This document shows positions 1,822-40,396 of a stretch of 44,588 bases of DNA, in pieces. A program made the position numbers and the translations under genes. This DNA is from a virus. Location of the stretch: the IMG/VR virus record IMGVR_UViG_3300036791_000116, positions 1 through 44,588 of that record; one strand, written 5' to 3'. Positions within the stretch are counted from its first letter, which is position 1. Every line of letters starts with the position of its first letter. Under the pieces are notes generated by a model. The model had not been told where the DNA came from. It did not search any database and worked only from the letters and a program-made list of their open reading frames with translations.

Positions 1822-3091
1822 TCCCTGCGTAGGCGGGGATCAGGCGTTGCAGCGTTTGACTCAAATGCATCTGAGCCCGGAGCAGGAGCACGCCATAGAG
1901 CTATGTCAGGACGTGACTAGCCGCATTGTCTCGGTGACGGGTGGTGCGGGGACTGGTAAGACGCTTGTGCTTGGGTACGTGCATGGGGAACTTAGCAAGA
2001 GGTATCAAGTGGCTCTGTGCGCACCGACGGGCAGGGCCGCAAAGCGTATATACGAACTGACTGGCATCCAAGCGAAAACCATACACAAGCTGTTGGAGTA
2101 TCCGCAGCCTGATGACGATCCGTTGTTCGGGAAGGACGGTGAAGAGCTAGCGCCGAGGAACGAGCCCAAGAGGAATGCGACGAATCCGTTCGACGAGTTT
2201 GTCATTCTTGTAGATGAATCGTCAATGGTTGGACCACAGCTTTATCGAGAACTGATAGCAGCGTTGCAGAAGCGTGGTGTTATCAGGTTCTTCGGTGACA
2301 ACAATCAATTGCTTCCGGTCGAGGAGGGGCCACCGCCGTTCAGGACGGTGTTGGAGAAGTTCCCATCGGTTACGCTGACGTTCAACTTCCGGTCAGATGA
2401 CGAGATCGTAAGCAATGCGTATCGCATCCTGAACGGTAGCATACCGCTTCGCAACAGGCGCTTCGACGTGATGTATGCTGACTATCCAGTGCTGACGTTA
2501 ATCAGAGAGATGGACAAGCATCCCGAATACGCATATGACAACAACCAAATCATCATGCCAACGCGCAAGGGGCCTGTCGGCACGTTGCGTATCAACCCGT
2601 CTATTCAGGTGAAGCTGAACAGGGACAAGCACTTGCTGCGACTGCCACGGTTCGACAAGAACGAGCATGATCTGGTAGTGCGTGCGAACGACAAGTTCCT
2701 ATGGGTCAAGAACGATTACCAGTTGAACCTGTTCAATGGTGAGATTGGCCGTATATACAAGATTGATCCAGAAGATGGAACGATGTGGATCAAGACTTCC
2801 GAGGGACGTAGTGTAGAGATACCACCGAGCATCAGAGCGTACAATGCGTATTTAAGGACCACGATCAACTATGATCCTCGCAAGCAGATTGAGCTAGGCT
2901 ATGCCATCACGACTCACAAGGCGCAAGGTAGCGAGTTCGATACCGTTGTTTATTGTATGTCTAGCTCGGCAGCGTTCATGCTTAACAGGAATAATTTCTA
3001 CACTGCGATGACACGTGCCAGATCACGGGTAGTCATCATAACAGATCGCCGTGGGATGTTCCTGTCGTTGCGTCGTGAGGTACGAGAATGA
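1796..3091 (+). CDS. SF1 DNA helicase (RecD/Dda-like)
   Basis: GTG 1796 has GAAGGAG 7 nt upstream. An alternative ATG at 1865 abuts the 13-bp motif. Walker A VTGGAGTGKT, Walker B ILVDESSMV, C-terminal AITTHKAQGSEFDTVV. Confidence 0.85.
   Translation: MTGSEVKRSPCVGGDQALQRLTQMHLSPEQEHAIELCQDVTSRIVSVTGGAGTGKTLVLGYVHGELSKRYQVALCAPTGRAAKRIYELTGIQAKTIHKLLEYPQPDDDPLFGKDGEELAPRNEPKRNATNPFDEFVILVDESSMVGPQLYRELIAALQKRGVIRFFGDNNQLLPVEEGPPPFRTVLEKFPSVTLTFNFRSDDEIVSNAYRILNGSIPLRNRRFDVMYADYPVLTLIREMDKHPEYAYDNNQIIMPTRKGPVGTLRINPSIQVKLNRDKHLLRLPRFDKNEHDLVVRANDKFLWVKNDYQLNLFNGEIGRIYKIDPEDGTMWIKTSEGRSVEIPPSIRAYNAYLRTTINYDPRKQIELGYAITTHKAQGSEFDTVVYCMSSSAAFMLNRNNFYTAMTRARSRVVIITDRRGMFLSLRREVRE
1822..1839 (+). 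repeat. GC hairpin element copy
   Basis: TCCCTGCGTAGGCGGGGA. The extended block 1805-1842 matches 13151-13188 at 33 of 38 positions. Confidence 0.8.
1854..1866. repeat. 13-bp dyad motif copy (1 mismatch)
   Basis: GTTTGACTCAAAT, overlapping helicase ATG 1865. Confidence 0.85.
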
Positions 3092-3103: not shown

Positions 3104-3664
3104 ATGGAAATGAGCCGTTTGACTCAGACGAGGCGGCAGCGTTATATAGTATTCACAGGGCCATCGCTCGGTGGCAAAAGTACCGCGGCTGCATTGCTCG
3201 TGTCATGGTTCCGGCAGAAGGGGTTATCAGCGGTGCATTGCTCCTTCGAGACGCCAATGAAGCACTATCTAGCTATGCTATTAGGGCGGAAGTTAGGCAC
3301 CTTCAAGATGGACGAGCCGTTATCCGCATTGTTATCAAAAACCTGCAAGGACTTTCTTAGGCTCGAAGCGGCGCATATGCGGTTCAACTACGGCCCGAAT
3401 GTCATGGGCAATATGTTGAAGGAGCGGACAAAGCACTGGCGTCACGATCCTTTGTTTGTTGTTGTGGATGACGGAGTGAGTGTGCTGGATTGCCGTGCGC
3501 TGGGCGATTACTTCCTGATCCAGATAGTGAGGGACAGGCAGGAGCGTGTGTATCCGTTCATGATTCCTAATGCGGATGCACACGTGAGGAATGACGGGAC
3601 GCTCGAACAGTTGGGTGCGCAGATCGAGAAGATAGGAAACATCATACTAGCGGAGGATATATGA
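3104..3664 (+). CDS. P-loop kinase-like protein (dNMP/nucleoside kinase-like)
   Basis: FTGPSLGGKST P-loop and FVVVDDG Walker-B-like strand. ATG 3104 (or 3110) follows GAAGAGGA. The function is inferred from motif and size only. Confidence 0.65.
   Translation: MEMSRLTQTRRQRYIVFTGPSLGGKSTAAALLVSWFRQKGLSAVHCSFETPMKHYLAMLLGRKLGTFKMDEPLSALLSKTCKDFLRLEAAHMRFNYGPNVMGNMLKERTKHWRHDPLFVVVDDGVSVLDCRALGDYFLIQIVRDRQERVYPFMIPNADAHVRNDGTLEQLGAQIEKIGNIILAEDI
3117..3129. repeat. 13-bp dyad motif copy
   Basis: GTTTGACTCAGAC, codons 5-9 of the kinase-like gene (RLTQT). Confidence 0.9.
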
Positions 3665-6132
3665 GCATTAAGGAAGAGTTTACGGCAATGGCCATGGGGT
3701 TCGGACTCGACGTGCAAGCCGTTTGCAGCGGCCCAGAGGATGCCACTACGGCGTTCATTGGTGAAGGGCTTGGCGACGTAGAGGTACGGAAGAAAGCACC
3801 GCTTGTCGGTAGGTCTGGCCAGTTGCTATGGAAGCGTCTTGAGCGTTATGGGCTGCGGCCTGACAACGTATATGCGACCAACGTCATCAAGCGACAGATC
3901 AGCATGTCAAATAACGAGCAGTTCAAGATGTATCCAGGCGAGTTAGAGCAGTGGCGTGAGTTGTTGAACTGGGAGCTAGGGCAGTTGCCAAACCTTAAGA
4001 CGGTTGTACTGCTGGGGAACTATGCGCTTAATGCCATACTCGACAAGGACGGGATCAACTCTTGGCGTGGGTCTGTGTTGGATATCAATCTGCCAAATGG
4101 TAAGCGTGGCAGAGCGGTGTGCACCAACAATCCAGCGTATCCGCTGCGCGAGCCTAGGGCCGAGATCACGTTCCTCATGGACATGCAAAAGGTTGGGCAG
4201 GTGGTAGCTGATACGTTCAAGACGTATGATGTTGATGCGATTATCAACCCGACGTATCGAGAAACCATGTCGTTCCTGCTGGATATGCAACGGAGTGACA
4301 AGCCTGTGGCTGCGGACATTGAAGGGCTGAACGACGAGACGGCATGTATGGGACTTGCGAACGGTGCGCATCGCGCGATCTGTATCAACTTCCGTGACGC
4401 AGATCGGAACACGTTCACGCCTGTCGAAGAGTACGACATTTGGATGGGCATTCAGCGGCTGTTTGACTCACACAAGGTTATTGCGCAGAACGGAGGGTTC
4501 GATGCGTATTGGTGTAGGCTCCGTGACTGGCTCCGCATTCGTGTCTGGTTTGATACGCTGTTGGCGCATCACACTCTGTACCCGCAACTACCACATAACC
4601 TTGCTTATCTCACTAGTCAGTACACGAACCACCCCTACTACAAAGACGAAGGAGACTACTGGAAAGAGGGAGGAGACATAAACGAGTTTTGGGTTTACAA
4701 TTGCAAAGACGCAGCCATAACGTGGGCGATTGCGCAGAGAGAGAAGGCTGAACTGGAGAAGCAAGGACTGAGTAAGTTCTTCTTCGAGCATGTCATGCAC
4801 GCGCAACCGCATCTGGTGGAGGCGACGGTACACGGTTTGCCGGTAGACAAAACGGTGAAGGCTGCGATTGCGCTAGAGATCGACAAGGATGTGTCGCGGA
4901 TCGAAGACGAGTTCCACAGGCTTGTGCATGAATGTACGGAAGATACAATGTACTTTCCCAATCCAAACTCATGGCAGCAGTTACGCGAGTTGTTCTTCGG
5001 CCGGCTCGATCTACAAGGCGTTGGGCTGTCCACAGACAAGACGAACCGTGACCACATAATGAAACATGCAAAGACCCGACCAGTGGAGAGGGAGATGCTA
5101 GCGGCACTGAATAAGTACAAAGAGGAGGATAAGTTCCGTGGGACGTATGCCAACGCAAAGGAGTCGAAAGATGGCAGGTTTCGTTTTGAATTTAAGCAGT
5201 ACGGAACGCAGAATGCTCCGGGACGGCTCTCCTCTAGTCAGCTTATTAACGGTGAGGGAGGTAACATCCAGAATCAACCGATGCGAGCGAGGGGGTTCTT
5301 TGTTGCGGACCCAGAGTGCGTCTATATCTACTTTGATCTGGCACAGGCTGAGGCTCAGGTGGTTTCTTTTAGGGCCGACATTCCAAAGTGGAAGCAACAA
5401 TTTGCCAAGGCACGGCGTGACGGGTCTTACGATTGTCATCGTGCATTGGCCTCGGAGATGTTCAAGGTCCCTTACGAGGATGTTCCAATGGCGGATTGGG
5501 ACGAGGATAATCGTCCTACGATTCGCTACGTCTCCAAACGTTGTAGACATGGCCTCAATTACCGAATGGAACGTTTTAGGCTCTCTGAGGTAACGGGCCT
5601 ATCATATCATGTAGCAGCGCGTGCGTTTATGCTATACCACAAGATCACGCCGGAGTTGCAGGATTGGTGGAAGCAGGAAGAGTATATGTTCAGGAAGACG
5701 CGGACAATGTATAACGCACTCGGTCGAAGGTTCCGTGTGCTGCAACCCGTTGATGATGAAGTGTCTAAGTCCGTTGTGGCATTCTATCCGCAGAGCACAA
5801 TTGGAGATAAAGTCGTGCAGGTTTGGTATCAGGCCGAGGAAGATGACGAATGGCCAAAGGGACATGCGCGAGTTGCGATCAATGTGCATGACAACCTCGT
5901 GGGTATGGCAGAGGTTAAGTATGCGAAGACTGCACTGCGCATCCTGAAAAAGTATGCGGAGAGTCCGTTACTGATTCAGGATGCGTGGAGTCGGCGACCG
6001 CCCGAGCCGTTATCGATTGGAGCCGAATGCAAGATTTCGTATCCGACAAGCTGGGACGAGAAGACGAGGCGGTTCGTGGAAGACCCAAACGGTCTGCACC
6101 GCTGGAGTAACATGAAGACCGTGGCCGTTTGA
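3661..6132 (+). CDS. Family A DNA polymerase with 3'-5' exonuclease and an N-terminal UDG-superfamily-like domain
   Basis: N-terminus: FIGEGLGDVE...PLVGRSGQLL (UDG family-4-like). Exonuclease motifs: VAADIEG, QNGGFDAYW, YNCKDA. Polymerase motifs: IYFDLAQAEAQV (A), RYVSKRCRHGLNY (B), NVHDNLV (C). The TGA stop at 6130-6132 lies inside a 13-bp motif copy. Confidence 0.9.
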   Translation: MSIKEEFTAMAMGFGLDVQAVCSGPEDATTAFIGEGLGDVEVRKKAPLVGRSGQLLWKRLERYGLRPDNVYATNVIKRQISMSNNEQFKMYPGELEQWRELLNWELGQLPNLKTVVLLGNYALNAILDKDGINSWRGSVLDINLPNGKRGRAVCTNNPAYPLREPRAEITFLMDMQKVGQVVADTFKTYDVDAIINPTYRETMSFLLDMQRSDKPVAADIEGLNDETACMGLANGAHRAICINFRDADRNTFTPVEEYDIWMGIQRLFDSHKVIAQNGGFDAYWCRLRDWLRIRVWFDTLLAHHTLYPQLPHNLAYLTSQYTNHPYYKDEGDYWKEGGDINEFWVYNCKDAAITWAIAQREKAELEKQGLSKFFFEHVMHAQPHLVEATVHGLPVDKTVKAAIALEIDKDVSRIEDEFHRLVHECTEDTMYFPNPNSWQQLRELFFGRLDLQGVGLSTDKTNRDHIMKHAKTRPVEREMLAALNKYKEEDKFRGTYANAKESKDGRFRFEFKQYGTQNAPGRLSSSQLINGEGGNIQNQPMRARGFFVADPECVYIYFDLAQAEAQVVSFRADIPKWKQQFAKARRDGSYDCHRALASEMFKVPYEDVPMADWDEDNRPTIRYVSKRCRHGLNYRMERFRLSEVTGLSYHVAARAFMLYHKITPELQDWWKQEEYMFRKTRTMYNALGRRFRVLQPVDDEVSKSVVAFYPQSTIGDKVVQVWYQAEEDDEWPKGHARVAINVHDNLVGMAEVKYAKTALRILKKYAESPLLIQDAWSRRPPEPLSIGAECKISYPTSWDEKTRRFVEDPNGLHRWSNMKTVAV
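4461..4473. repeat. 13-bp dyad motif copy
   Basis: GTTTGACTCACAC, inside the PolA CDS (LFDSHK). Confidence 0.9.
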
Positions 6133-6139
6133 GTCAAAC
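6127..6139. repeat. 13-bp dyad motif copy
   Basis: GTTTGAGTCAAAC. Contains the PolA stop TGA at 6130-6132. Confidence 0.9.
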
Positions 6140-6442: not shown

Positions 6443-6658
6443 TCGTTCGATGTTTGACGTAGCTCGCCAGTAGGCTATCTGCCCTGGGAGCACGTACTTG
6501 TTAGCCTTCTTGTCGGCAGCGAGCGTTCGTAGGAAGGCTATCACTTCACCGTCGCGAATGTTGCCGCCAGCCTTGGAGATTAGCTCTGACTGGCGGCGAC
6601 CTTGCGTACCGCCGTCGATTAGGTGCTTCGTGACGTTCACTTGCCAATCAATGCTCAT
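6434..6658 (-). CDS. hypothetical protein (74 aa), last gene of the leftward arm
   Basis: ATGA start/stop overlap with the giant gene (6655-6658). 9-nt convergent overlap with 6173..6442. Confidence 0.55.
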   Translation of the reverse strand: MSIDWQVNVTKHLIDGGTQGRRQSELISKAGGNIRDGEVIAFLRTLAADKKANKYVLPGQIAYWRATSNIERLS

Positions 6659-9600
6659 GGTTGTGGTCCTTCCTCCTCGTATGATTGGTCTGCCGGAAGA
6701 TTGTGTGGCGATAGGTCTTGTATGCTAATGTGCCTACCGTATTCGGGATGCCTTGCCGTCATTTCGTCCTCGACACGTGTAATTGCTGCGTTGATCTCCC
6801 TTGCTGCTAATTGTCTGTATCGCTCGTACCAACTCCTGACCGCGAACGGGTCTGTGTGGTCCACACCAGCGTTCTTGAGCACTTGCATTACGTCTGGTTT
6901 TTGTTCTATGCGTTGTTTCCAAGTAGCCATGTTGCCAAAGTCGATGTACCGCATGGACTGAATGGCTTTGGATGATGAATTGTATCGATCCCAAAGCGAT
7001 CTGAACCCCATGCCTCCTCTGTTGAGGCTGTCTTTGCTGAAGCGTTCGTCGAGCAGCTTCGCAAACTCTATGTATAGCGGATTGTTCGGCGGCTCCTGTC
7101 CAAGACCGGGTGAGTGCGGCGGCAGTGGCGGCCCTAATAGTTTACTTGCCTCCGCAAAGCCTGATGGGCTCGTCGGCTTCGCCTTGGTTATGAATTGCTC
7201 TCCGGCCATACCCCACTGGTGGTAGTAGTCGAGGAGCCCACGGATCGCCTGCTCCCTGTTATACATCTCGTTCACCATCCGCGTATTGCCAGATGGTGGC
7301 GCAAATGTATTGAAGGCGTTGTTTAGCAGCGGTGTGCGTTGTACCTGCAATTTGCCCATCTGCTTGAGGCCATTCTTCAACGCATTGGCGTACCCGGTTT
7401 CGTCCGAGTGCTCGTACGCTCCGTATCCAGCCAGCCACATATCCAGAATCGCAGGACTCACGGCCCTGGACAGGCTTTCATTTAGCTGGCTCATCACCTT
7501 GTTTGAGTCATACGGGTTCTGTTTGCGCATAAATGTGTCGCCGCCGATATCAGTAGCACCTACGTTCTGACCAAGCGCATTTCCCAACGGACTGCGAAAG
7601 AACGCCCCGAGGTTGCCCGGCGCTGATGCTCCTAGTGCCTCCACACCGGCCCCGAATAATGGCGGTGTTGGTGGCAGCACAACATCGAGGGCCATCGAGA
7701 GTGCCGCTTTGGCGTCTTGCGTCTTAGTCCATTGGGCCGCATTCGGGCTGTGATCACCGCTCCAGTAGTTGTCTCCGTACATGTGCGACATGACGGCTTC
7801 TATTGCCATCTTAGGAAAGACGCCTTCCTGAAACCACGGCATTTCTATACCTTCTGCCGCACGCCTTCCCGGCCATGCGATATACAAGTACATGCCGCGC
7901 CTGTACTCGTTTCTGCCGTACAACTGGTGACGTATGTACGGAGTACCTTCCGGGTCTGCACCCGCATACGTGTTCCATAAATAGGCAAGTACTGGCGGTG
8001 TTATATAGGCTGTGAGAGCCTTGAGAGCAAACCTTGTAGGGCTGCGCTTGGCAGCCTTTGGAAATGCCTTCAATCCCTGCATAGACATATTGTGCCACGG
8101 CAGTGTACGCAGCACATCGTGAGAGAATACCCATGCCTCAGCCGTCTTCGCACGAGCAACTAAGTCAGGAGACATCGGGTCCTTGGTCTGGTATCTAATG
8201 AAGTGACCTTCCTGGTTGTGCGCAGTGCCAGACACCAACGGATCGCCTACCAGCGCGTTTGAATCAGACACCAGCCTGTCGTATGTCGTATCTAATACTT
8301 GCTCTTCTGTTGCTGATGGTCCTAGCTCATTGCGTACGGCTGCCTTCACCCGCTTGAAGTTCTTCTGCACAGCCGCTGTCTGTGTTGAACTGTGTACGTC
8401 ATTTAGAAGATTCCGATAGGCGTGGCCCAGCGTAGCCAGTTGTCTGGTTCCGGGCCTTGTGCTCATATCCTGCACCATAGCTCTTAACCGGCTGTGCGGA
8501 TTGACCAAGCTGCTATCAGTACCGTACCGCATCAGTCCGCGAGAGTGTGTACCTCTAGCGCGTATATTCGCAACCGTGCTGCGCGCATACTGATTCGCTA
8601 GTATGCTTGCTATGTGGTTTGATGCGTTGTCGCCAAAGGCATGTCGCAACCATCCACCGCTGGTCGCATCGAGTGAGTACGATGCGTGTCTAGCTAGTCG
8701 TGCTAGTGACGATGATCCTACAGCATATCCCAACCCTGCAAGTCCAGGGGCCTTCCTTGCGTACCTCATTCCACCGGATGTCCCTTTTGCGATGCGATAG
8801 TTGCGAAGTGTATCTAATGGCGCAAAGTACACTTGCAGCAGTCCTGTCGTAGAAGCCACAAACAATCGTTTTGTTGCAGAAAGCACCTTAGCTACCGTAC
8901 CTGAACTGAAATGGTCTGGTCCGAATCTAATCAAATCCTTCATCGTAGGATTGTCTGCAACCCAATGCTGCTTCACGCCCCGGCGATACGATGTCACATG
9001 ACGATGCTGGAGCGAATCTGTAATATCTCCTGCTCTCTTGGGCGTGAACATGTGCCGTGCGCCTGGGGATTGCCGCAACGTATCAATAATTTTGCCGGTG
9101 GCCTGTTCATTTATGGTCTTCCGCGCTTGTGTGGTCACATACTGCATAGCTGATTTAATGGGATCAGGACGACGCAAAGGTTCACCCATTGCATTCCGCC
9201 CGTCGGGATACTTGATGTACTCTGCACGCTTGCTCCTACTAACCGGAACCTCATTCGGGTTGTGCGCATACTTGTTAAGCTCTTCGCTCTTCGTCATGAT
9301 CGAGTGTTCGCCCTCAGCCTGACCACGACGCGATTCCAGTATGTTCTCTTTGTAATGACCGCGCACGCGAACCCAATCTGGATGGGCCTGCTCCGTCTGG
9401 CGGATTTCCTGCAACAGATCAGCTTCTGTCTTGCCATGAATCATCGGTGGCCCAACCTGCGGATTTGCGTTTGCTGCGACTGTGCGCTTTCGTTGTATGT
9501 TCCGGACTTCATCAAGATCGCTGTTGGCATTTAAGTATTCACGAAAGCCCCTGTTCCTACTGAAGTTCGCATACGCCTCAATCTTCCGCAACGATACAGG

Positions 9601-12600
9601 CACTTCAAACCGGAAGTGCGGCGATATGGCACGCCCTTCTTCCACTGCGGCGTTCGCAAGGGATTGAGACTGCGCACCTGTATACTCACGTAGCGTATCT
9701 TGCAGATCGTCTAATACCGCAGGTGTCAGCCCTGTCTTTGCTGCATACGACGTGATCGGTCCTATACGGTCGTTAGCAAGATACGAGTAATCATGCGGCG
9801 TGAACTGCGCTTCCCAAGTTGCTCCGGCTGGCGGCGTAGGCATAGCAGACGGCGCGCTAGGCGGTGGTGCAGCCGGACCCTGCATGATGTTGGCGGGTGG
9901 CGACTGACGAGAGAACGGCGTTGGCGCAGCGACGGGTGCAGCGGCAGGTGCAGCAGGTGCTGTTTGACTCAAACCGGGCACCTGATTAGCCGGCACAACA
10001 TCCACGGGGATGGCCGTAGCGGCCGGCGGCGTGACGACGGGAGCCGCCAGCGCACTGGGCCCAACGGGACGCGTGATAGGTACGCCTCGTCGAACACCTT
10101 CGCCTGTCGGTGCTGGAGGCACAGGCGCCTCTGTGCGTTGCGCTATGTCAGCAGCTTGCACCGGCAAGGACGATTCTGGAACTGCGCTGGGAACCACTCC
10201 GCCTAGGGACTGTACGCGAGCAGCTTCCTCGGCAGCCTTTCGTGCAGCAACAGCGCGGGGATTAGATCCGAGCGCACGCGGATTCGTTCCGTGCAGACGC
10301 CTGTTTGCTGGCGGAAGCTGCGGAGCAGGCGGCAATGTGGCCGGAGTGGCAGCTTCGGGTTGCAGCGCCTTCAACTCTTCAATAGGGGTCTTGGCCTCCG
10401 GTAGCGCCTGCTGGGTCTTGCGCTCCTCAAGAAGTTGACCTACAGGGCTCAGTCCCTGAGTAGGCGCCGGTGGTGGCATAGGTTCAGCGGCAGCAGTACG
10501 CGGAAGGAACTGCCCTGTCGCCGGATCGCGCGGAGGTATAGGCATATCGGGATGCGAAACGAACTGACCAGTCTCGGCGTCTCTGGGGAATACCGGCGGC
10601 GTGGGCCTGTTGCCGGGCACACCAATATCAGATTCGGGTACGCCTTCGGGGGTTATGATCTTGCCACCAGCCACACCGAGTCCTCTAGGCGTCTTGAACG
10701 GAGTCTTACCAATCAGCATTTGCGCTGTGTTGTTGGCCCAATCCATCGCTTCCTGTTCGTTCTCTCCACCAATCATATGGCTTGTATCGCCTTGCCATGC
10801 CTTTTCTGCCATCTGGCCTGGGGTCATGGCCAAACCGTACATGCCTTGGATAGTACGCGATGGCAGACCAGCAACGCCGTAGCCCAGCGTCTTCCACCAG
10901 TCCCCTTGCACGTCGGGAGGCATCTTGCCGGACAGAATGGCGTCAGCGGCCCTGTTCGCAGCAGTATCTGGAATTGGTGGTGGTGGTATGTGCGACATAG
11001 ACTTCTGGTCTTCAATGCTCATGTGACTAAGTGGCTTTATCTCTCCGTTCGCGAACCGCTGCAAGAACTCTGGTGACTGCATAATGCCTTTCGTCATGCC
11101 GATGGTAGGGTCCATCTCTGCATCATAGTGCTGGATACGTTGCGGTTGTCCATCGGCACCGATCACTGTGTGAGTCAAACTAGGTAGCGCATCGGGTACC
11201 ATAGCGTCTGTCAGCCATGACGGGAACTGTGACTCGTCAACTGGCGTCGAGGCAGCCTGCAAATCTACAGGCGGTATCGGAGGCAGTGGCGGCATAGGCG
11301 CTTGTGGCTGCGTAGGATGCTGTAACTGCTTCGCGTAGTCACGCAATGCTACAATATCGGGGTCTTCCTGCGGAGGCCCATACTCCTCTGGCTGCTGGAT
11401 TTGCTCATCAGGCGCGCCGGCTACGTTCACACTGGCCATCTGATATGGTAGCTCAGGTGATGCGTCTGTCATCGTTCCGGTGTCGCGCTGCGCATACCGA
11501 ATTGGTGCATTGCTAGCGGCACGGACAGCAGGAGGCGCCATACCACCAGCCATTGCCGTGACCCACTTCCGGTCGGCATTCTCCTGAACGAATCGTTCGC
11601 CGGTACGGGGGTCGAATGCTACAGGCGCACCACCAGAATGCACACTGCCGCTCTCGTTGCCGGTGGCGTAGTTGGCAACGTTCGAGCCGCGCAGTGCATT
11701 CTGTATATAGCCATTGATTCGCCCTTGCTGGTCCGGTCCAAAGCCCTCGCCTAGCTTGTTAATGGTTGTTGATGGATAGTAGTGTACGTCTCGGATAGCC
11801 TGCTCCAGCGTCATGCCACGCGACGCAGCACGATTCATTACTGACTCGACATATGCCTGCTCGGCCCGTGGTCCCTGCCCGCCAACTTCCGCGTTGACCG
11901 AAGCCGCAAACAGCCGTCGCGTATTGGGGTCGGATAGTTCCTGCCCGAACCGCGACTGCCGTAGCTGCATCAAGTTAGTTGCAGAGGATGGAGCCGATGC
12001 ACCACCGTATGGCCCAGGAACGCTAGCACCGCCAGCACTAGCAACAGGAACACTATCGCTAGAACCGTCCGCCCCTGATCGCCCTCCAGCCATCTGGATA
12101 TGCACAGGGTCATTCTGGAATGCGCTACCCTTAAGGAACTCCAGCCCGTAACGACCCGCGTTCTGATGCAAGTAATCCAGCACCGGACCCCGTCGCACGT
12201 CTGCCGCCAGACCTTGTTCATGAAGGCTGCGTCCGGGCGGAGCGGCCAACCCGCCCTGGTTGTTTGGATTCGGTTGATACGTGGTTCCCCCGAAGGTGAC
12301 GGGGTGTCTGGTGTAGTCTGCATAGTATTGTGCCTGTCTTTCTGCTGGTCGATATAGATCGGATAGCGACGCCTTCTGCCCTGTGGCTGATTCTGCATCC
12401 TGTAGTGCTCGTGTCAGTCTCCCTGCAAAGGTTGGATTTAGGAACTGCGCGTTAAGGTCTGTGCCACGACTGAGTAGGTACTGATACGGTTGCACCGCTC
12501 CCGCAGGCGTGTCATTTGCAGCGACTTGCACTGGCCGCAACTGGTTCTGTATGATCTGGAACTGGTCTGATCCGTATGGAGGAGTATACGGCGGCGGTGT

Positions 12601-13124: not shown

Positions 13125-13137
13125 GTTTGACTCACAC
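13125..13137. repeat. 13-bp dyad motif copy
   Basis: GTTTGACTCACAC, 2 nt from giant-gene ATG 13122. Confidence 0.9.
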
Positions 13138-13937: not shown

Positions 13938-13950
13938 GTTTGACTCAGAC
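13938..13950. repeat. 13-bp dyad motif copy
   Basis: GTTTGACTCAGAC, between the stop at 13952 and the SD of the 13926 gene. Confidence 0.9.
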
Positions 13951-16079: not shown

Positions 16080-16092
16080 GTTTGAGTCAAAC
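16080..16092. repeat. 13-bp dyad motif copy
   Basis: GTTTGAGTCAAAC, between the stop at 16108 and the SD/ATG at 16066. Confidence 0.9.
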
Positions 16093-17515: not shown

Positions 17516-17528
17516 GTTTGACTCACAC
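17516..17528. repeat. 13-bp dyad motif copy
   Basis: GTTTGACTCACAC. Contains the tail-fibre stop (17523-17525) and lies 3 nt from ATG 17512. Confidence 0.9.
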
Positions 17529-19381: not shown

Positions 19382-19394
19382 GTTTGAGTCAAAC
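19382..19394. repeat. 13-bp dyad motif copy
   Basis: GTTTGAGTCAAAC, between the stop at 19401 and tail-fibre ATG 19367. Confidence 0.9.
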
Positions 19395-21227: not shown

Positions 21228-21240
21228 GTCTGAGTCAAAC
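21228..21240. repeat. 13-bp dyad motif copy
   Basis: GTCTGAGTCAAAC. Contains the stop of the 21235 gene and lies 9 nt from ATG 21218. Confidence 0.9.
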
Positions 21241-22142: not shown

Positions 22143-22155
22143 GTTTGAGTCACAC
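22143..22155. repeat. 13-bp dyad motif copy
   Basis: GTTTGAGTCACAC, between the stop at 22159 and ATG 22124. Confidence 0.9.
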
Positions 22156-23777: not shown

Positions 23778-23790
23778 GTTTGAGTCAAAC
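23778..23790. repeat. 13-bp dyad motif copy
   Basis: GTTTGAGTCAAAC, between the capsid stop and the SD of 23765. A half-site CTTGACTCGC lies at 23797-23806. Confidence 0.9.
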
Positions 23791-24793: not shown

Positions 24794-24806
24794 GTTTGAC
24801 TCAAAC
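24794..24806. repeat. 13-bp dyad motif copy
   Basis: GTTTGACTCAAAC. Contains the scaffold stop (24801-24803), upstream of capsid ATG 24778. Confidence 0.9.
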
Positions 24807-25871
24807 ACCCAGGGAATCCAATGTCTCCTTGAGTATTGCGTCGTACGATTGCCCTATAGGCGCCATGCCGTTCGCCTGTACGAACTGTGGCTGTCCACGC
24901 CCGGTTGGTAGATTTCGTCTCGCCTGTCTCACCTGCCCATTACCATTGCCGGTCATGCGCATGTGGTTCAACTGTATTCTGGCCCACACTTCGCTCATGC
25001 TCATATGCTGAAACTGTGGTTGACTGAGCACTGCGTGAAAGATGGGTATGTACTCCCGCGCTGCGGGGTTCGCGATGAAGAAGCCGTTAACCTCACGCTC
25101 TGTTTCCTGATACACACGCTGGGCCGTTTCTTGCTGCGCAGCTTGATACTGCTCGGCCTGCATCCGTTGTTGCAGTGGGGTCAGCGCCCCTCTGATCTCG
25201 TTCTGAACCATACCCATCAGGGCCTGCGAGTCCACACCGCCGGGCGCAATGCCAATCCGCGTCACGTCCACGCCGGCGGCCGCAGCCATCGTCAACAGCT
25301 TTTTGAGCGTCGCCACTGGATCGCGCTTCGCCTCGGCCGCAAGCTGCATTGCCTGAATCGATTCGCCATCGTTCAAACCGAGACGCGCGGCTGCCGTATT
25401 CCGGTCATTGAGTTGCGCCGTGAGCCCCTCGATACGCTGGTGGAACTGCTGCCCTAGCTCAATCGCCCGTGTTAGACGCGATGACAAGTCCTGCGATCGC
25501 GCCTGCTCCGTTGCTAGCTCTCGCCGACTGCGCTGCGTCTCTTGATACATACGGGCCTCGAAGCCCGCCTTGGCAACGACCTTGCCATCGGCACCGACAA
25601 GGTTCCCGCGCTGGTCGGCCTGAACCTCGGCACCACGAGGCAGCGGCCTTTGCTGCTGTTGCCCAGGTTGCTGACGCTGCGGAGCCCTCGCCTCTTCGCG
25701 TCCCTGCTCTCCGTGTGACTCAAACGACTGACCTTCGTCACCGCCGGATTCATACGACTCCGACTCTCCTCCCTCTTCTCCACCGATATCCGACTCGTCC
25801 ATACCAAGGTTGTCCAGCACCATATCCATGGCGCTCTCTGAACCACCGTCCAGGTTCCTGTCTTCTGACAT
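24801..25871 (-). CDS. scaffolding protein (356 aa)
   Basis: Lies between portal and capsid. Acidic N-terminus and Gln/Glu/Arg-rich predicted coiled coil. The TGA stop lies inside a motif copy. Confidence 0.65.
   Translation of the reverse strand: MSEDRNLDGGSESAMDMVLDNLGMDESDIGGEEGGESESYESGGDEGQSFESHGEQGREEARAPQRQQPGQQQQRPLPRGAEVQADQRGNLVGADGKVVAKAGFEARMYQETQRSRRELATEQARSQDLSSRLTRAIELGQQFHQRIEGLTAQLNDRNTAAARLGLNDGESIQAMQLAAEAKRDPVATLKKLLTMAAAAGVDVTRIGIAPGGVDSQALMGMVQNEIRGALTPLQQRMQAEQYQAAQQETAQRVYQETEREVNGFFIANPAAREYIPIFHAVLSQPQFQHMSMSEVWARIQLNHMRMTGNGNGQVRQARRNLPTGRGQPQFVQANGMAPIGQSYDAILKETLDSLGV
25713..25725. repeat. 13-bp dyad motif copy
   Basis: GTGTGACTCAAAC, inside the scaffold CDS (FESH). 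Confidence 0.9.
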
Positions 25872-25880
25872 AGTACGCTC

Positions 25881-28250
25881 CTATTGCATTGGTGTCATTT
25901 TGGCTAACGGCGACTTCTTGGGTAGAACGGGCGCAGACGCACCACCACCACCACCACCGGAGCCATTACCGGGTGGAGGCTGTGGCGCGCCTGGAGGCCC
26001 TCCCTGCGCAGCGTGCAGAGCCGCTACATGCTGCAACAGGTAGCTCATAATCATCTGTGGGCTGGCCCCTGAGTTCTTCATCTGTAGCACTTGCTGCTTA
26101 ACCTGCATCGGGATATTAGAAAGCAACTGCTCGATGTTCGCTCCAGGCTGCACACCCGGTCCCTGTGTCGGCGATGGCGTTGGCGCACCCGGCGTCCCAG
26201 GGTCTGCGCCACCCGGAGGCTGATCCGGTGCCTGCCCAGGCTGATTGCCGCCCGGTTGCGTACCCGTAGCCGATCCCGTACCCTGCCCGGTCTTCGCACT
26301 GATCTCGGCATCGATCGCAGCCCAATCCTCTGGCTGGATGACAACCTCGGTGAATGCCTGTTCGAGCACCTTGAGCATCACTTTCAGCGTCGCGCCCGGT
26401 GCAGCCTGCGCAAATTGCCCAACGGCCTGCGCAATCTGAATAGCCTCCTTTTTCTTGAATATGCTATTCGGCTTCTCCATACTGCCAGCGACGATTTCCA
26501 TATTGTACGTGCTATTGAGCATCGCGACACTCATAGGCTTAAAGAACTGCCCAAGCGCCGGCCCAATCAAACCGATCACGTCGTCCACGGTCATATACTG
26601 CACACACAATTCGGCAAGCGAAATGGCAATATCCGCAACCGCATCCTCCACAACGTCAACCTTGGCTCCGACCGAGAGCTTCATCGATTCCTGATATGTA
26701 TTAACAGCGTCCTCATTTGTGTTAGTCTTGAACTGCACTCCTCGCAGCGCATCGCTGGTATTGGTGATTCGGTTGATTGCATCCAACAAGTCTTGCTTAT
26801 TAAACAGTTCCTTGTACTGATCCATTCGTGGGTAAAGTGACTCAAACACATCTTGAATCTTGCCCTCGCCGGCCTTGACGCCACAGACATGCTTCTGGTC
26901 ACTCCCGACGTTCTCGCCACGGATGCCGTTTAGCATCTTCTCGATCTGATCGCTGTCCGTCTTGTCAGCGTTGTAGAAGAAATAATCGAACACGGACGTA
27001 CGCATACGTCGTAATTTGCGATTGATGACGTTAATTTCATCCTGCTGGTCTAGATAATACGACGACTCGCCCACGGCCACAGTGCCGCCGGTGCTCATTG
27101 TATAGCCTACAATGTAATATGGATAGAACCGACTGATATTCAGTGGGTCGTCCCATACCCATAACGGCCACGTCCAATCATCTCTGTGGAACAGCATGAC
27201 TCGTCGCGTCAGCTTGTCCCAAATCATGTAACACTCAGTCGTATACATATTCAGATAGGCTGTACGCTCGTCATCCGTGTGGTGCGTACTGTCGATACCG
27301 GCTTCCATCGCCTGTTGCACGAATCCCAAGCCGTCGTCGCGCTTCCCATCCGACGTATCGAACGAAGCCTTATGCGTAGGCTTGTAGATCAGCACACGAT
27401 TTCCGCCTTTGAGATCGTTTGACTCAGACGGCGAGTCGGGATCAGGTATAGTGAACCGCTGCGTGAGCATCGCCGTCGGCAAAAACACGCGCTCGGCCTG
27501 CCAATCCGCATCTGTGCCATCTTGCAATTCGGCATACGGATCGATAATCAGATTATGAGGCAGCACGTTATTCAGGCTGGGACCGCTTGGTTTCATCACT
27601 TCCATATTCATCTCCAAGGCTTCCATCTGCCCATAGAGATTCGATACCTCCTCTTGCGTCTTTGCGACAGCCAATTGCTGCGTAATTTGCGTCAATTGCT
27701 GTACTGCAACCTCTCGCGAGTCGTCTTTTCTGGTGTAATCCAGCTTCAAAACACCAAAATTGGTCAACAAACCGACACCAACACACTTCTTAATCTTCAA
27801 TTTTGCCCGCAGCGTCGTCCTGAACAACGTATTTATCAGCTTCTCCAACGCCTTGCAGAAGTCCTGATCTGTGCTGTCCGACGTACTGACTGTAATGTCG
27901 GGGTTCTTGCTGTAAACCGCCGGTAGCATCACGTTCAGATTCGAGAACACCACATTTTCCGTAACATCGCCGCGCTTAAACACGCCACGGGATGACTCGA
28001 TCGGACGGCCTTGGCTGTTGTTGTAATACCGAAATACCTCATCCCAGGCAATCGTAACCTGCTCGTACGCCTTGATTGCCGCATTGATTCTGCGCTGCCA
28101 CAGCTTGCCCACCGACGAACTGATCGCAATACGGCTACCCTCGTAGATGCGATATACCGGCTCCGGCTCATTGCCGGGCTTCGATGGCGTTGGTGCATCT
28201 TCACCAACATCATCAACATCAGTCTCGTCGGCGCCATATACGTCTGTCAT
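25881..28250 (-). CDS. portal protein (789 aa) with a low-complexity C-terminal extension
   Basis: Large ORF between TerL and the scaffold. C-terminal ~150 aa are Gly/Pro-rich with a Met/Gln-rich helix. The ATG has no SD and lies 2 nt from a motif copy. Confidence 0.75.
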   Translation of the reverse strand: MTDVYGADETDVDDVGEDAPTPSKPGNEPEPVYRIYEGSRIAISSSVGKLWQRRINAAIKAYEQVTIAWDEVFRYYNNSQGRPIESSRGVFKRGDVTENVVFSNLNVMLPAVYSKNPDITVSTSDSTDQDFCKALEKLINTLFRTTLRAKLKIKKCVGVGLLTNFGVLKLDYTRKDDSREVAVQQLTQITQQLAVAKTQEEVSNLYGQMEALEMNMEVMKPSGPSLNNVLPHNLIIDPYAELQDGTDADWQAERVFLPTAMLTQRFTIPDPDSPSESNDLKGGNRVLIYKPTHKASFDTSDGKRDDGLGFVQQAMEAGIDSTHHTDDERTAYLNMYTTECYMIWDKLTRRVMLFHRDDWTWPLWVWDDPLNISRFYPYYIVGYTMSTGGTVAVGESSYYLDQQDEINVINRKLRRMRTSVFDYFFYNADKTDSDQIEKMLNGIRGENVGSDQKHVCGVKAGEGKIQDVFESLYPRMDQYKELFNKQDLLDAINRITNTSDALRGVQFKTNTNEDAVNTYQESMKLSVGAKVDVVEDAVADIAISLAELCVQYMTVDDVIGLIGPALGQFFKPMSVAMLNSTYNMEIVAGSMEKPNSIFKKKEAIQIAQAVGQFAQAAPGATLKVMLKVLEQAFTEVVIQPEDWAAIDAEISAKTGQGTGSATGTQPGGNQPGQAPDQPPGGADPGTPGAPTPSPTQGPGVQPGANIEQLLSNIPMQVKQQVLQMKNSGASPQMIMSYLLQHVAALHAAQGGPPGAPQPPPGNGSGGGGGGASAPVLPKKSPLAKMTPMQ
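26835..26847. repeat. degenerate 13-bp motif copy (2 mismatches)
   Basis: AAGTGACTCAAAC, inside the portal CDS (FESL). Confidence 0.45.
27417..27429. repeat. 13-bp dyad motif copy
   Basis: GTTTGACTCAGAC, inside the portal CDS (SESN). Confidence 0.9.
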
Positions 28251-28252: not shown

Positions 28253-28265
28253 GTCTGACTCACAT
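28253..28265. repeat. 13-bp dyad motif copy (1 mismatch)
   Basis: GTCTGACTCACAT, 2 nt from portal ATG 28250. Confidence 0.7.
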
Positions 28266-29062: not shown

Positions 29063-29075
29063 GTTTGACTCACAC
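29063..29075. repeat. 13-bp dyad motif copy
   Basis: GTTTGACTCACAC, between the TerL stop at 29078 and the PEP-CTERM-like gene. Confidence 0.9.
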
Positions 29076-30591: not shown

Positions 30592-30604
30592 GTGTGACTC
30601 AAAC
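30592..30604. repeat. 13-bp dyad motif copy
   Basis: GTGTGACTCAAAC, 2 nt from TerL ATG 30589. Confidence 0.9.
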
Positions 30605-31633: not shown

Positions 31634-31646
31634 GTTTGACTCAGAC
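31634..31646. repeat. 13-bp dyad motif copy
   Basis: GTTTGACTCAGAC, touching the stop at 31646 and upstream of the SD of the TerS-like gene. Confidence 0.9.
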
Positions 31647-32623: not shown

Positions 32624-32636
32624 GTTTGAGTCAAAC
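32624..32636. repeat. 13-bp dyad motif copy
   Basis: GTTTGAGTCAAAC, between the leader terminator and the first leftward gene. Confidence 0.9.
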
Positions 32637-32860: not shown

Positions 32861-32873
32861 GTTTGAGTCAAAC
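32861..32873. repeat. 13-bp dyad motif copy
   Basis: GTTTGAGTCAAAC, non-coding, 59 nt upstream of the PL -35. Confidence 0.9.
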
Positions 32874-33297: not shown

Positions 33298-33310
33298 GTT
33301 TGACTCACAC
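33298..33310. repeat. 13-bp dyad motif copy
   Basis: GTTTGACTCACAC, non-coding control region. Confidence 0.9.
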
Positions 33311-33670: not shown

Positions 33671-33683
33671 GTGTGAGTCAAAC
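33671..33683. repeat. 13-bp dyad motif copy
   Basis: GTGTGAGTCAAAC, between iteron arrays C and B. Confidence 0.9.
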
Positions 33684-33968: not shown

Positions 33969-33981
33969 GTTTGACTCAAAC
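33969..33981. repeat. 13-bp dyad motif copy
   Basis: GTTTGACTCAAAC, 70 nt upstream of the P1 -35. Confidence 0.9.
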
Positions 33982-35640: not shown

Positions 35641-36711
35641 ATGGCGATTAAGTTCCGTTTGAGTCAAACAGTGAGTAAACCGGCCCTTGTCGCGGGTCGG
35701 AAGGCGGTTCCCGCAAGGGCTCCGGCTGCGGTGGTCAAGGCTCCGCCGAAGGGTAGGGCTGAGACTGCGGCGGAGAAGGCCGCAAACGAGACTACCGGCG
35801 GTCTGGTGCCGATTAAGAAGTCGGCCTTGTCGCTGGACGTTGGTCCTCGCGTCATCCACGCGCTCTTTGCTAACTCGGAGCGTTTGGACGCGATCACCGA
35901 GGAGATGCACATACTCAAAAAGAGTTATGCGCAGTTGTCGGAACTAACCGCTGCCATTACCAAGGCGGCGAAGGCCGATACCTCTATCGACCTTACTTCC
36001 GCGTTCTCTGGGGAGGTTAAGCAGATCGCCAAGTTGAATAACCAGCTTGGCATTGCGCTTGGCTTCCGCGTGGTGCGGAAGGGTGAGCCTGACAAGAGCG
36101 GCGTTGCCTATGACGCCGTGGTGACCAGTGAGAGCGTCGCTGATTGCTTCCCCATGCCTGGGGAGGACAAGAAGCTGCCCGCGATCCGGCGGAAAGAAAC
36201 CTTCCGCAGCAACTTCATGACACAACTTAAGAAGTGTGCCATGGCCGCGCACGCGATCATCGAGAACGATATCGATGCGCGGTTCGACACCAAGGCTGGC
36301 ACGTTGCTGATCTCAGGACCGGCCGTTCGTAAGCATTTCGGGCAAGAGCGAGTTTTGCTCGATGAGCGGAAAACGGTCGGGAGTGGCGACGCCAAGGTGG
36401 AGTTGAGCGAGAAGCCCAGCTTCACGGCGCTTGCCAATATCGGCGCGGCGTCGCAAGGTGTCGCGCCAGCGGTGGCTGGCTCCGGTGGAGCGCAGCACCG
36501 TGGCAACAACCCAGGAACCGTTGGCGGTACGCAAGCCGTCGCGGCAACGAAAGCTGCCGAGGTTACGGGCAAGGAGAGCATCGACGCGGCGATCCTGACT
36601 ATCTGCAAGGCGCTGCGGACGACGCTGGAAAAGGCCAAGGAACTGAGCAAGAACGCCATTGCGGCTCTTGAAGAGACAAAGAACGCAATTGACGTGCGGC
36701 TCACGAACTGA
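35641..36711 (+). CDS. early protein of unknown function (356 aa) with an Ala/Lys/Pro-rich N-terminal tail
   Basis: Driven by promoter TTGACA-17-CATAAT (35570-35598). GGAGG lies 8 nt upstream of the ATG. Motif copy at codons 6-10. Confidence 0.75.
   Translation: MAIKFRLSQTVSKPALVAGRKAVPARAPAAVVKAPPKGRAETAAEKAANETTGGLVPIKKSALSLDVGPRVIHALFANSERLDAITEEMHILKKSYAQLSELTAAITKAAKADTSIDLTSAFSGEVKQIAKLNNQLGIALGFRVVRKGEPDKSGVAYDAVVTSESVADCFPMPGEDKKLPAIRRKETFRSNFMTQLKKCAMAAHAIIENDIDARFDTKAGTLLISGPAVRKHFGQERVLLDERKTVGSGDAKVELSEKPSFTALANIGAASQGVAPAVAGSGGAQHRGNNPGTVGGTQAVAATKAAEVTGKESIDAAILTICKALRTTLEKAKELSKNAIAALEETKNAIDVRLTN
35657..35669. repeat. 13-bp dyad motif copy
   Basis: GTTTGAGTCAAAC, codons 6-10 of the 35641 gene (RLSQT). 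Confidence 0.9.
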
Positions 36712-36750: not shown

Positions 36751-36753
36751 GCT

Positions 36754-36766
36754 GTTTGACTCACAC
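36754..36766. repeat. 13-bp dyad motif copy
   Basis: GTTTGACTCACAC, after hairpin 36723-36750 and before the GGAGTGCA box. Confidence 0.9.
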
Positions 36767-37246: not shown

Positions 37247-37259
37247 GTTTGAGTCACAC
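37247..37259. repeat. 13-bp dyad motif copy
   Basis: GTTTGAGTCACAC, in the leader of the P3 transcript. Confidence 0.9.
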
Positions 37260-37525: not shown

Positions 37526-37813
37526 ATGGCCAAGAGCTTTAAGGAGAAGTTTGATATGAGCGTTGAGAATGAAGACCACATTCGGTATCTGGCTGGCGTC
37601 CATACGACGATGACGGCGCTGGAGTTGACGATCGACGAGTACGGATTGCCGAAGGTGATCGATATGCTGACGGACATATGCCACGGTAAGGCAAATCATG
37701 TCCGTGAGTACGGGGCCGATCCAGAGGCGGCGAAGCATTGGGATAGCATTGCAGAGCGGCTCTCGAAGATGGGCGGTAGTTTGACTCAAACCGAAGCGGA
37801 GTGCAGCGAATGA
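37526..37813 (+). CDS. hypothetical protein (95 aa)
   Basis: ATG 37526 lies 4 nt after GGAGTGCA (37514-37521). Confidence 0.6.
   Translation: MAKSFKEKFDMSVENEDHIRYLAGVHTTMTALELTIDEYGLPKVIDMLTDICHGKANHVREYGADPEAAKHWDSIAERLSKMGGSLTQTEAECSE
37779..37791. repeat. 13-bp dyad motif copy
   Basis: GTTTGACTCAAAC, in the 3' end of the 37526 gene (SLTQT), upstream of the next SD. Confidence 0.9.
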
Positions 37814-38355: not shown

Positions 38356-38368
38356 GTGTGAGTCAAAT
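38356..38368. repeat. 13-bp dyad motif copy (1 mismatch)
   Basis: GTGTGAGTCAAAT, 1 nt after the stop at 38354. Confidence 0.8.
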
Positions 38369-38926: not shown

Positions 38927-39219
38927 CAGTTGTCGAGAACTGTCCAAAATGCGGCGGCACGCATTTTGGATCCTATACATGCCCAATTGTGAGGACGACC
39001 ATGAAGCTAAGTGAGCTAAAGGCCGGAGATGTCCTGATCGCTGACGATGGATTTACGTGTTTGCGCGCAGGGCCACACACTGTCGAGGCTTCGGAAAACG
39101 GCCTGTTTATCAAATGCGATGTTGGTAGGCATTTCCTCACCGCGCAGGAAGATCGTGAGACTGGAGAACTTGTAGGGTTTTCGTTTGACTCACACAAGCC
39201 TGGACAGGAGCCGAAATGA
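38923..39219 (+). CDS. hypothetical protein with an N-terminal CxxC...C motif (98 aa)
   Basis: ATGA overlap. The 3' end carries a motif copy in frame (FDSH). Confidence 0.6.
   Translation: MTVVENCPKCGGTHFGSYTCPIVRTTMKLSELKAGDVLIADDGFTCLRAGPHTVEASENGLFIKCDVGRHFLTAQEDRETGELVGFSFDSHKPGQEPK
39183..39195. repeat. 13-bp dyad motif copy
   Basis: GTTTGACTCACAC, in the 3' end of the 38923 gene (FDSH), upstream of the SD of 39216. Confidence 0.9.
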
Positions 39220-40383: not shown

Positions 40384-40396
40384 GTTTGAGTCAAAC
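40384..40396. repeat. 13-bp dyad motif copy
   Basis: GTTTGAGTCAAAC, 2 nt after the stop at 40381 and before the tandem hairpins. Confidence 0.9.

Follow-up and report, generated by a model that had tools for sequence, protein, structure and literature searches.

The window analysed here is the whole 44,588 bp of IMG/VR virus record IMGVR_UViG_3300036791_000116, throughout which a short palindrome, GTNTGASTCANAC, recurs both between and within genes. The two ends of the window share an identical 127 bases as an exact direct repeat (1–127 and 44462–44588), and it is therefore a complete, circularly closed phage genome of about 44,461 bp. A rightward arm runs from about 35.0 kb through the window end to 6.1 kb and encodes a nuclease, a Walker-A ATPase whose gene crosses the circle junction (start 43978, end 380), an SSB-like protein, a ribbon-helix-helix protein, a helicase, a dNMP-kinase-like protein and PolA, the last being a UDG-exonuclease-PolA fusion; this arm is also rich in open reading frames (ORFs) without any match. 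A leftward arm, from 32.6 kb to 6.4 kb, carries the terminases, portal, scaffold-like, capsid and tail genes, and the gene for a giant protein of 2155 amino acids.

The palindrome is present in 34 exact copies in the window and in 0 copies in each of 100 dinucleotide-preserving shuffles. A position-weight scan returns 38 sites of at least 15 bits (GTNTGA-S-TCANAC), plus one weak junction site of 12.2 bits (Table 1), and the palindrome can be extended to about 15–17 bp as (C)(Y)GTTTGA-S-TCAAAC(R)(G); its duplex version is written as CTGTTTGAGTCAAACAG. The arms have a 6-1-6 architecture in the window and a 5-3-5 or 7-3-7 architecture in relatives. Most of the array occupies intergenic spacers, such that nearly every spacer of 16 nt or more has a site and overlapping or abutting genes have none, and in the late operon the site fills the gap between the preceding stop and the next ribosome-binding site, mostly 2–15 nt before the ATG. 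Seven sites, referred to here by their first position, lie deep in ORFs (4461, 7501, 8257, 9962, 11168, 27417 and 42872), and about six more overlap ORF ends or first codons; these other coding sites are located in first codons (3117 and 35657), 146 nt into an ORF (25713), or in last codons (37779, 42271 and 43948). A full-text literature search for the 13-mers gave unrelated primer sequences only, and an exact-pattern scan for GCTACAGNNNCTGTAGC in viral contigs gave unrelated single matches only.

A preliminary description of this DNA had listed ten copies of the motif inside genes. All ten positions carry the sequence given for them, and eight (four in the giant gene and one each in the PolA, portal, scaffold-like and nuclease genes) are real, strong sites of 16.8–24 bits. 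The remaining two, at 192 and 26835, we reject as sites: they score 11.6 and 8.0 bits, for which shuffles give about 0.4 and 1.3 such matches respectively, and their orthologues keep the peptides VRLRR and IFESL with free synonymous change and no motif. As the sequence at 192 is a chance look-alike at the level of shuffled sequence, the proposal that a T-to-C change there rescued a third-frame copy fails with it. It is true that the coding copies avoid the frame in which the motif reads TGA, yet this follows from the definition of an ORF, and the recurrent peptides F/Y/S-D/E-S-N/H and L-T/S-Q/H-T are indeed present but are merely the two remaining translations. The internal spacing reported for the giant gene, which we find to be 756–1957 bp, was correctly described.

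The PolA gene provides the clearest view of how an internal copy is maintained. By a strict test 29 of 34 orthologues have the site at the codons used in the window, and by direct reading all PolA orthologues of our first set have it there; in a wider PolA set it is present in nearly all genomes with GTNTG arms down to 52% identity, with the exception of L262. The sequence at these codons is GTTTGACTCACAC in the clade of the window (peptide LFDSH), GTGTGACTCACAC in the GTGTG type (LCDSH), GTGTGATTCACAC in the type with an A/T centre (LCDSH or MCDSH) and TTGTGAGACACAA in the TTGTG-N3-CACAA type (CCETQ), so that F is replaced by C, D by E, S by T and H by Q along with the palindrome of the lineage. 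Because the PolA site tracks the version of the palindrome used by each lineage, it is the protein that changes to keep the DNA site, and we regard this as a clear example of an essential enzyme whose amino acids change at the dictate of a non-coding DNA signal. Codon usage agrees with this. Among 21 PolA sequences dereplicated at 95%, codon entropy averages 1.43 bits over 327 columns with a conserved residue, and codons of the motif rank 2nd (Ser, TCA), 3rd (His), 5th (Asp) and 6th (Leu) from the lowest; the codon for Ser270 is TCA in 19 of 19 sequences. These comparisons show that the internal copies are selected as DNA, and they lend strong support to a DNA-level role.

Conservation of the other internal sites is more varied. 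In four orthologues of 35–76% identity, including those at 35–42%, site 1 of the giant gene (11168) falls at the same column of the alignment and varies at motif positions 1, 3, 7 and 11 only, of which 3, 7 and 11 are degenerate positions; site 2 (9962) is found in 3 of 4 orthologues, displaced by about 10 codons within a proline-rich linker, and both of these conserved sites fall within long Pro/Ala-rich linkers of the giant protein. Sites 8257 (0 of 23 orthologues) and 7501 (0 of 27) are seen in the window only and are missing even from the orthologue at 76% identity, and the portal site (27417) is common only to the 82%-identity clade and does not occur in the 89% clade or in distant relatives. 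The nuclease site (42872) is present in 8 of 32 orthologues, the scaffold-like site (25713) in 3 of 10 and the dNMP-kinase-like site (3117) in 4 of 6. Sites 7501, 8257 and 27417 are young and lineage-specific, and the young internal sites arose by point substitution, as near-matches stand at the orthologous positions.

The distribution of sites along the chromosome is considerably more even than random placement would give, with a coefficient of variation of gap length of 0.44 for the whole genome against 0.96, and a largest gap of 2142 bp against an expected 4944 bp (P < 1e-5). If the junction sites are held fixed and the seven internal sites are placed at random over eligible coding DNA, the largest gap is no larger than 2142 bp in 1.4e-4 of trials. 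The three genes of more than 2.3 kb contain six of the seven internal sites (P = 0.014), and without internal sites the largest gap in the window would be 7.0 kb. In 27 related contigs, whose shared kinship means that ORF and gap counts are not independent, the largest gaps are 1.5–3.9 kb, with one of 4.7 kb, and junction sites alone would leave up to 8.8 kb. In these contigs a site is present in 16 of 16 ORFs longer than 3 kb, in 66% of those of 2.1–3 kb and in about 25% of those of 0.9–2.1 kb, with a density of internal sites of 0.22–0.42 per kb that is fairly flat over gene sizes, compared with about 0.03 per kb by chance. These data support a soft rule, in which spacing is limited to about 2–4 kb and long site-free stretches are disfavoured without any fixed period; sites are far denser where they are free of coding constraint.

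At least ten versions of the palindrome are found across relatives: GTTTGA-S-TCAAAC, GTGTGA-N-TCACAC, GTATGA-N-TCATAC, GTGTG-N3-CACAC, TTGTG-N3-CACAA, CTTTAA-N-TTAAAG, TACAA-N3-TTGTA, CTACAG-N3-CTGTAG, TATAC-N3-GTATA and GATTAA-S-TTAATC. Internal PolA sites also occur elsewhere in the gene, numbering three in the CTACAG type, two in the TATAC type and one each in the TACAA and CTTTAA types, and in nearly all genomes with an unrelated version the giant ORF holds 1–4 sites, where chance would give about 0.05 per locus for the 12-base versions. As these unrelated palindromes have internal sites of their own, independent lineages have solved the same problem in the same genes. There is no array in about 15 distant relatives, nor in the cultured Microcystis phage Mel-JY34 (L112; PP438425.1), which has a similar layout of early genes, PolA, an opposite-strand 5.7-kb gene and structural genes, and is a natural negative control.

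The centre of the window motif is a GANTC sequence, which is not depleted in the window (157 observed, 170 expected). Near-total loss of GANTC (0–4 against 50–88 expected) is seen in L104, L263, L277, L279, L284, L287, L297, L299, L300, L282, L293, L295, L283 and L285, and partial depletion in L271, L275, L110, L272, L036, L037, L040 and L267. In every array-bearing genome that is nearly devoid of GANTC (0–4) the arms of the palindrome are kept and the centre lacks GANTC, which suggests that host restriction pressure shapes the site. GANTC itself is not required, since arrays persist with GANTC-less centres, and on the same ground we reject a CcrM/HinfI-type methylation or restriction signal as the function of the array.

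Variation among the sites provides some insight into how they are read. In 23 of the 38 sites one base is changed, either at position 3 or at the mirror-image position 11, compensated pairs number 0, and the canonical GTTTGA half is kept in 38 of 38. The RNA folding energy is −0.7 kcal/mol for a perfect copy and 0 for the common variants. Neither the centre base nor the variant half-site has a preferred arrangement on the sense strand, and there is no orientation bias relative to transcription. The flanks extend the symmetry, position −1 being a pyrimidine in 87% of half-sites and position −2 a C in 50%. Isolated GTTTGA half-sites outside full sites are not enriched (22 against 20 expected). 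The uncompensated variants, negligible hairpin energy, symmetric flanks and unenriched half-sites together point to a two-fold symmetric protein acting on duplex DNA, and because the specificity of the palindrome differs between related phages this protein is probably phage-encoded. Independent oriented half-sites, as in a Chi-like single-strand motif, are rejected on the half-site count. Isolated GTGTGA is rarer than first-order Markov expectation (9 against 28, standard deviation 4.5), a crude null model.

The only recognisable dimeric DNA-binding protein found in the window is the ribbon-helix-helix protein (Table 1), whose fold assignment is supported, 13 of its 19 orthologues matching Pfam TacA1. 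The protein is conserved among genomes in which the site centre is TGA-N-TCA (TGASTCA in the window), its gene is absent from the matching slot of a CTACAG-type genome, and its beta-strand residues do not map simply onto the palindrome versions. On these sequence matches it may be put forward as a weak candidate for the binder of the palindrome. A ParB-family CTPase had no Pfam or PHROG match, most early ORFs being without any match, and no ParB/KorB or KorA homologue was detected in Pfam/PHROG scans of the ORFs.

Table 1. Palindrome sites of the window and the candidate binding protein, with coordinates on the given strand
Feature	Position	ORF or strand	Remarks
Deep internal PolA site	4461..4473	PolA ORF 3661-6132 (+)	GTTTGACTCACAC, codons L-F-D-S-H
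Deep internal giant-ORF site 1	11168..11180	ORF 6655-13122 (-)	Pro-rich linker
Deep internal giant-ORF site 2	9962..9974	ORF 6655-13122 (-)	Pro/Ala-rich linker
Deep internal giant-ORF site 3	8257..8269		centre A, 16.8 bits
Deep internal giant-ORF site 4	7501..7513		19 bits
Deep internal portal site	27417..27429	portal ORF 25881-28250 (-)	
Internal nuclease site	42872..42884	ORF 42504-43661 (+)	368 nt from start; gives TGA stop to alternative ORF 42326-42877
Scaffold-like ORF coding site	25713..25725	ORF 24801-25871 (-)	146 nt in
dNMP-kinase-like ORF coding site	3117..3129	ORF 3104-3664 (+)	codons 5-9
Coding site	35657..35669	ORF 35641-36711 (+)	codons 6-10; about +52 from sigma-70-like promoter
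Junction site in hairpin loop	982..994		after ORF 349-963; 11-bp terminator-like hairpin
Junction site, helicase start	1854..1866		last base T for C, giving in-frame ATG at 1865
Gene-end site, PolA	6127..6139		motif TGA 6130-6132 is PolA stop
Junction site, giant gene	13125..13137		2 nt 5' of ATG
Junction site	13938..13950		then AGGAG and ATG 11 nt downstream
Junction site	16080..16092		13 nt 5' of ATG
Junction site	17516..17528	ORF 17523-19367	overlaps stop of this ORF; 3 nt 5' of next ATG
Junction site	19382..19394		14 nt 5' of ATG
Junction site	21228..21240	ORF 21235-21969	overlaps stop of this ORF; 9 nt 5' of next ATG
Junction site	22143..22155	ORF 22159-22869	3 nt after stop of this ORF
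Junction site	23778..23790		then AGGAG and ATG 12 nt downstream
Junction site	24794..24806		overlaps scaffold-like ORF stop; 15 nt 5' of ATG at 24778
Weak junction site, portal	28253..28265		12.2 bits; 2 nt 5' of ATG; placement like other junction sites
Junction site, large terminase end	29063..29075		2 nt after stop
Junction site, large terminase start	30592..30604		2 nt 5' of ATG (30589)
Junction site, small terminase	31634..31646		14 nt 5' of ATG
Site	32624..32636		between leftward sigma-70-like promoter (32802-32774) and first late gene
Non-coding control region site	32861..32873		
Non-coding control region site	33298..33310		
Site between inverted iteron arrays	33671..33683		
Non-coding control region site	33969..33981		
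Junction site	36754..36766		directly after terminator-like hairpin; GGAG and ATG downstream
Junction site	37247..37259		about +64 from consensus promoter 37148-37176
Junction site	37779..37791	ORF 37517-37813	last codons
Junction site, 2 mismatches	38356..38368		15.2 bits
Junction site	39183..39195		20 nt 5' of ATG
Junction site	40384..40396	ORF 39902-40381	2 nt after stop of this ORF
Site near ORF end	42271..42283	ORF 42078-42329	46 nt before end of ORF; 16.6 bits
Site in last codons	43948..43960	ORF 43601-43975	17 nt 5' of ATPase ATG
Ribbon-helix-helix protein, 68 aa	1283..1489	+	profile match to DUF1778/TacA antitoxin structures, E = 0.002

Many of the sites in Table 1 are interwoven with signals of gene expression. 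In addition to the PolA stop, the late-gene stops at 17523, 21235 and 24801 lie within sites, and at 38356, as at the helicase start, a terminal T replacing C creates an in-frame ATG (38367); at the helicase start, relatives align from residue 12–26 onward. The four sites situated 2–3 nt before an ATG (13125, 17516, 28253 and 30592) all have a G at the centre on the sense strand, which places a Shine-Dalgarno-like GAG about 8 nt before the start, and the free centre base thus seems to double as a ribosome-binding element. Two sites adjoin predicted hairpins. Site 982 forms the 13-nt loop of a GC-rich, 11-bp, terminator-like hairpin followed by TTTTGTG (971–1012), and at 36723–36766 a terminator-like hairpin is directly followed by a site, the TTT of which may serve as the U-tract.

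Strong sigma-70-like promoters with an extended −10 TG are found only at 32774–32802, 33029–33056, 35570–35598 and 37148–37176, and for those at 32.8, 35.6 and 37.15 kb a site lies between the promoter and the first gene, at about +131, +52 and +64 respectively. As the 26-kb late block has no comparable sigma-70-like promoter, the late genes may be read very far from one or two promoters at 32.8–33.05 kb. A 1.7-kb non-coding stretch holds five clustered sites together with 11-bp iterons. The iteron CAACAACCAAT is repeated four times at 11-bp spacing (33455–33497), with inverted copies at 33555–33590 and 33707–33743, and 13-mers of the GGGCGATAGGCGA type are present at 33853–33900. The non-coding segment 33440–34130 that contains these repeats looks like a replication origin, with site 33671 between the iteron arrays.

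The giant protein has a conserved peptidase-like segment at about residues 224–358, which has a weak match to VanY and resembles tape-measure proteins (a PHROG family). Its conserved C-terminal region of about 1000 residues has no match in Pfam or PDB sequences, a profile of the protein has no match among PDB sequences, and as a single query for related loci it gave no pattern match. That it is a virion RNA polymerase is neither shown nor excluded by its sequence, and hairpin promoters are unlikely in any case because the hairpin energy is negligible. Among the window proteins there is no recognisable primase, and Rfam and tRNA scans of the window gave no match. A Pfam and PHROG scan of about 40 ORFs found no integrase, repressor or partition genes, although as most early ORFs match nothing their absence is unproven.

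Cultured phages gave no near-DNA match and no tblastn match to the portal. There are many relatives in IMG/VR, with identities of 89–33% in the portal and 90–44% in PolA; by PolA they number roughly 470. A search of 185,579 species genomes yielded a single distant relative, L303 (CAZEZI010000018.1, a Thioalkalispiraceae metagenome-assembled genome), on a 26-kb contig with 44% PolA identity and no palindrome array; this is a weak hint that gammaproteobacteria are hosts of the distant relatives.

We propose, with about an even chance of being right, that the palindromes are an array, spanning the chromosome, at which a symmetric phage protein binds and from which it acts over a limited distance. 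In this model the copies in long ORFs would be full members of one array of 38–39 sites, and a dimeric, sequence-specific protein, probably of phage origin, would read the palindrome on double-stranded DNA. The array takes almost every spacer of at least 16 nt, and genic stretches that lack a spacer for more than about 2.5–3 kb acquire an in-frame site through selection, which uses one of the two stop-free frames and preferably a tolerant linker. This distribution makes it plausible that the protein has a restricted range of action on the DNA around each site, for instance through coating, sliding or blocking. Such limited-distance action would imply that a whole-chromosome process is served rather than a gene-by-gene signal, and candidate processes would include global control of transcription units, chromosome organisation, and replication and recombination. 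The preliminary description had likewise argued for a DNA-level role, and this holds in view of the depth to which the PolA site is kept, its tracking of the lineage motif, its low-entropy codons and the convergent sites elsewhere; the comparison that it had proposed, of nucleotide conservation beyond what the amino acids require, comes out in its favour. Its opinion that punctuation of gene expression alone is insufficient we judge to be right, and its suggestion of a spacing-dependent role stands as a soft rule (P = 1.4e-4; every ORF over 3 kb) and not as a strict one, given gaps of up to 3.9 kb (4.7 kb in one case) in relatives and the youth of several window sites.

Several observations weigh against this proposal. 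The spacing limit is loose, relatives tolerating gaps of 3.0–3.9 kb (4.7 kb in one), and because the density of internal sites is flat, the data are almost as well explained by a tendency to have more sites wherever they are tolerated as by a distance rule. In the control and early regions there is one site per 240–600 bp, which exceeds the need of any spacing rule, and relatives with 7-bp arms could form a hairpin of −5.8 kcal/mol. No binder was found, and in the scan of about 40 ORFs nearly all early proteins were without any Pfam or PHROG match. The ribbon-helix-helix protein was undetected where the palindrome is of another version, some genomes that have no array contain a weak match to it, and no gene family near PolA tracks the array in presence or absence.

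A more specific reading, which we consider rather unlikely, is that the sites of the array load or anchor a factor that tracks along DNA and reaches about 1–2 kb, the recognition sequence diversifying under host restriction. Such a factor might be a regulator of the clamp type, or one that restarts replication or recombination, and it would need a site within reach everywhere; this requirement would reshape proteins, as in PolA and the giant virion protein, and the loss of GANTC from the centre would represent the restriction-driven diversification. Silencing of the stoperator kind, in which repressor-bound roadblocks stop RNA polymerase at each junction and internal sites are extra roadblocks, is in our view unlikely. 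The length class of the sites, their preference for short intergenic spaces and their location between strong promoters and first genes are what it would predict, and their sequence diverges between relatives as stoperators do with their repressors (PMC6550527), but known stoperators are asymmetric and oriented with transcription (PMC4351075; PMC6550527) whereas the sites of the window are palindromic and unoriented. It is further disfavoured by the scanned ORFs, which include no integrase, repressor or partition genes, and by the single distant relative among species genomes, which indicates that this is not a common prophage; moreover, a roadblock in the middle of PolA would add nothing beyond the site upstream at 3117, yet it is the best-conserved site.

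Interrupted palindromes are typical of dimeric nucleases, and a spacing of about 1–2 kb regardless of coding suits a process that operates per unit length, so that the sites could be nicked or cut by a symmetric DNA-processing enzyme or be points at which priming, recombination or packaging starts. The phage has a Walker-A ATPase, an SSB-like protein, a nuclease, a helicase and PolA, and lacks a recognisable primase. We nevertheless find this quite unlikely: no nuclease or primase is linked to the sites, the known nick sites of phages T5, phiKMV and tf are asymmetric and lie on one strand, and neither the density in the control region nor the near-universal placement at junctions would be needed. 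A signal at the RNA level (mRNA processing or stability, a translation element, or a hairpin promoter or terminator, with internal copies as by-products) would account for the tight placement of late-operon sites before starts, for the Shine-Dalgarno-like GAG of the four ATG-abutting sites and for the stable hairpin of the 7-bp-arm relatives. It is very improbable, notwithstanding these points, as the window hairpin reaches −0.7 kcal/mol at best and 0 for at least 13 copies, no change in an arm is matched by a compensating one, no strand bias is seen, no Rfam family matches, and the PolA site is conserved with no gene start nearby. Equally improbable is a host-related function, whether binding of a host factor or GANTC methylation or restriction; the GANTC centre of the window motif, which in relatives changes in step with GANTC depletion, speaks for it, but arrays persist in genomes that have all but lost GANTC, and the many versions among close relatives fit a phage-borne specificity better than a conserved host factor.

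Whichever protein is involved, the family offers a clean comparative system, with hundreds of relatives, at least ten palindrome versions, array-less relatives and intragenic codons constrained at the level of DNA, and a distance-limited process, if true, would be a new organising principle for phage chromosomes. Scattered palindromes of 12–16 bp, bound by dimers and serving chromosome-scale processes, are familiar from MatP/matS (13 bp), SlmA and Noc; these arrays cover particular regions of cellular chromosomes at a density of tens of sites per megabase, and of the proteins MatP includes a ribbon-helix-helix element. In Cluster K mycobacteriophages the start-associated sequences lack symmetry, take in the ribosome-binding site and are not known to occur deep inside genes. 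In plasmid RK2 the OB sites number about a dozen over 60 kb. The KorB operator OB of RK2, TTTAGCGGCTAAA, is like the window site a scattered 13-bp palindrome of 6-1-6 architecture with a central S, and it loads a DNA-sliding clamp that acts at a distance (PMC11790492). The KorA operator OA, TGTTTAGCTAAACA, has outer arms TGTTT/AAACA like those of the window site TGTTTGASTCAAACA, which is a resemblance only (PMC11790492), and the Cluster K sequences are a 13-bp repeat a few bases 5' of many starts (PMC3203893, as described in PMC4351075).

Genome-wide short repeats are known in phages as stoperators and in Cluster O, the palindromic, unoriented kind being without an assigned function. The stoperators of Cluster A mycobacteriophage L5 and Streptomyces phage R4 resemble the present sites in being about 13 bp, in their number per genome, in occupying short spacers, in their diverging motif and in lying downstream of promoters (PMC6550527, PMC10276819), but they are asymmetric and oriented and are recognised by a temperate phage's immunity repressor, and we reject a classical stoperator system for the symmetric, unoriented sites of the window, in which no lysogeny genes were found in the scanned ORFs. 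Among known systems the nearest counterpart is a 17-bp palindrome found in Cluster O mycobacteriophages such as Corndog, TGTTCGG-N3-CCGAACA, which is present in 34 unoriented copies, about one third of them in genes, and for which the authors predicted a dimeric DNA-binding protein with a role other than transcription initiation, the function being unknown (PMC4351075). Both arrays consist of an inverted repeat with a short variable centre in more than 30 unoriented copies, with a sizeable intragenic share, in phages that are not obviously temperate. The site sequences are unrelated, however, and Cluster O phages are actinobacterial siphoviruses whereas the window phage has no DNA or portal match to cultured phages; in Cluster O there is no close link between the sites and translation starts, nor are there reports of a spacing rule, of co-evolution across relatives or of selection at the codon level. 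The family described here differs in having its many palindrome versions spread over a large uncultured family, and in that its intragenic sites are shown to be selected as DNA.

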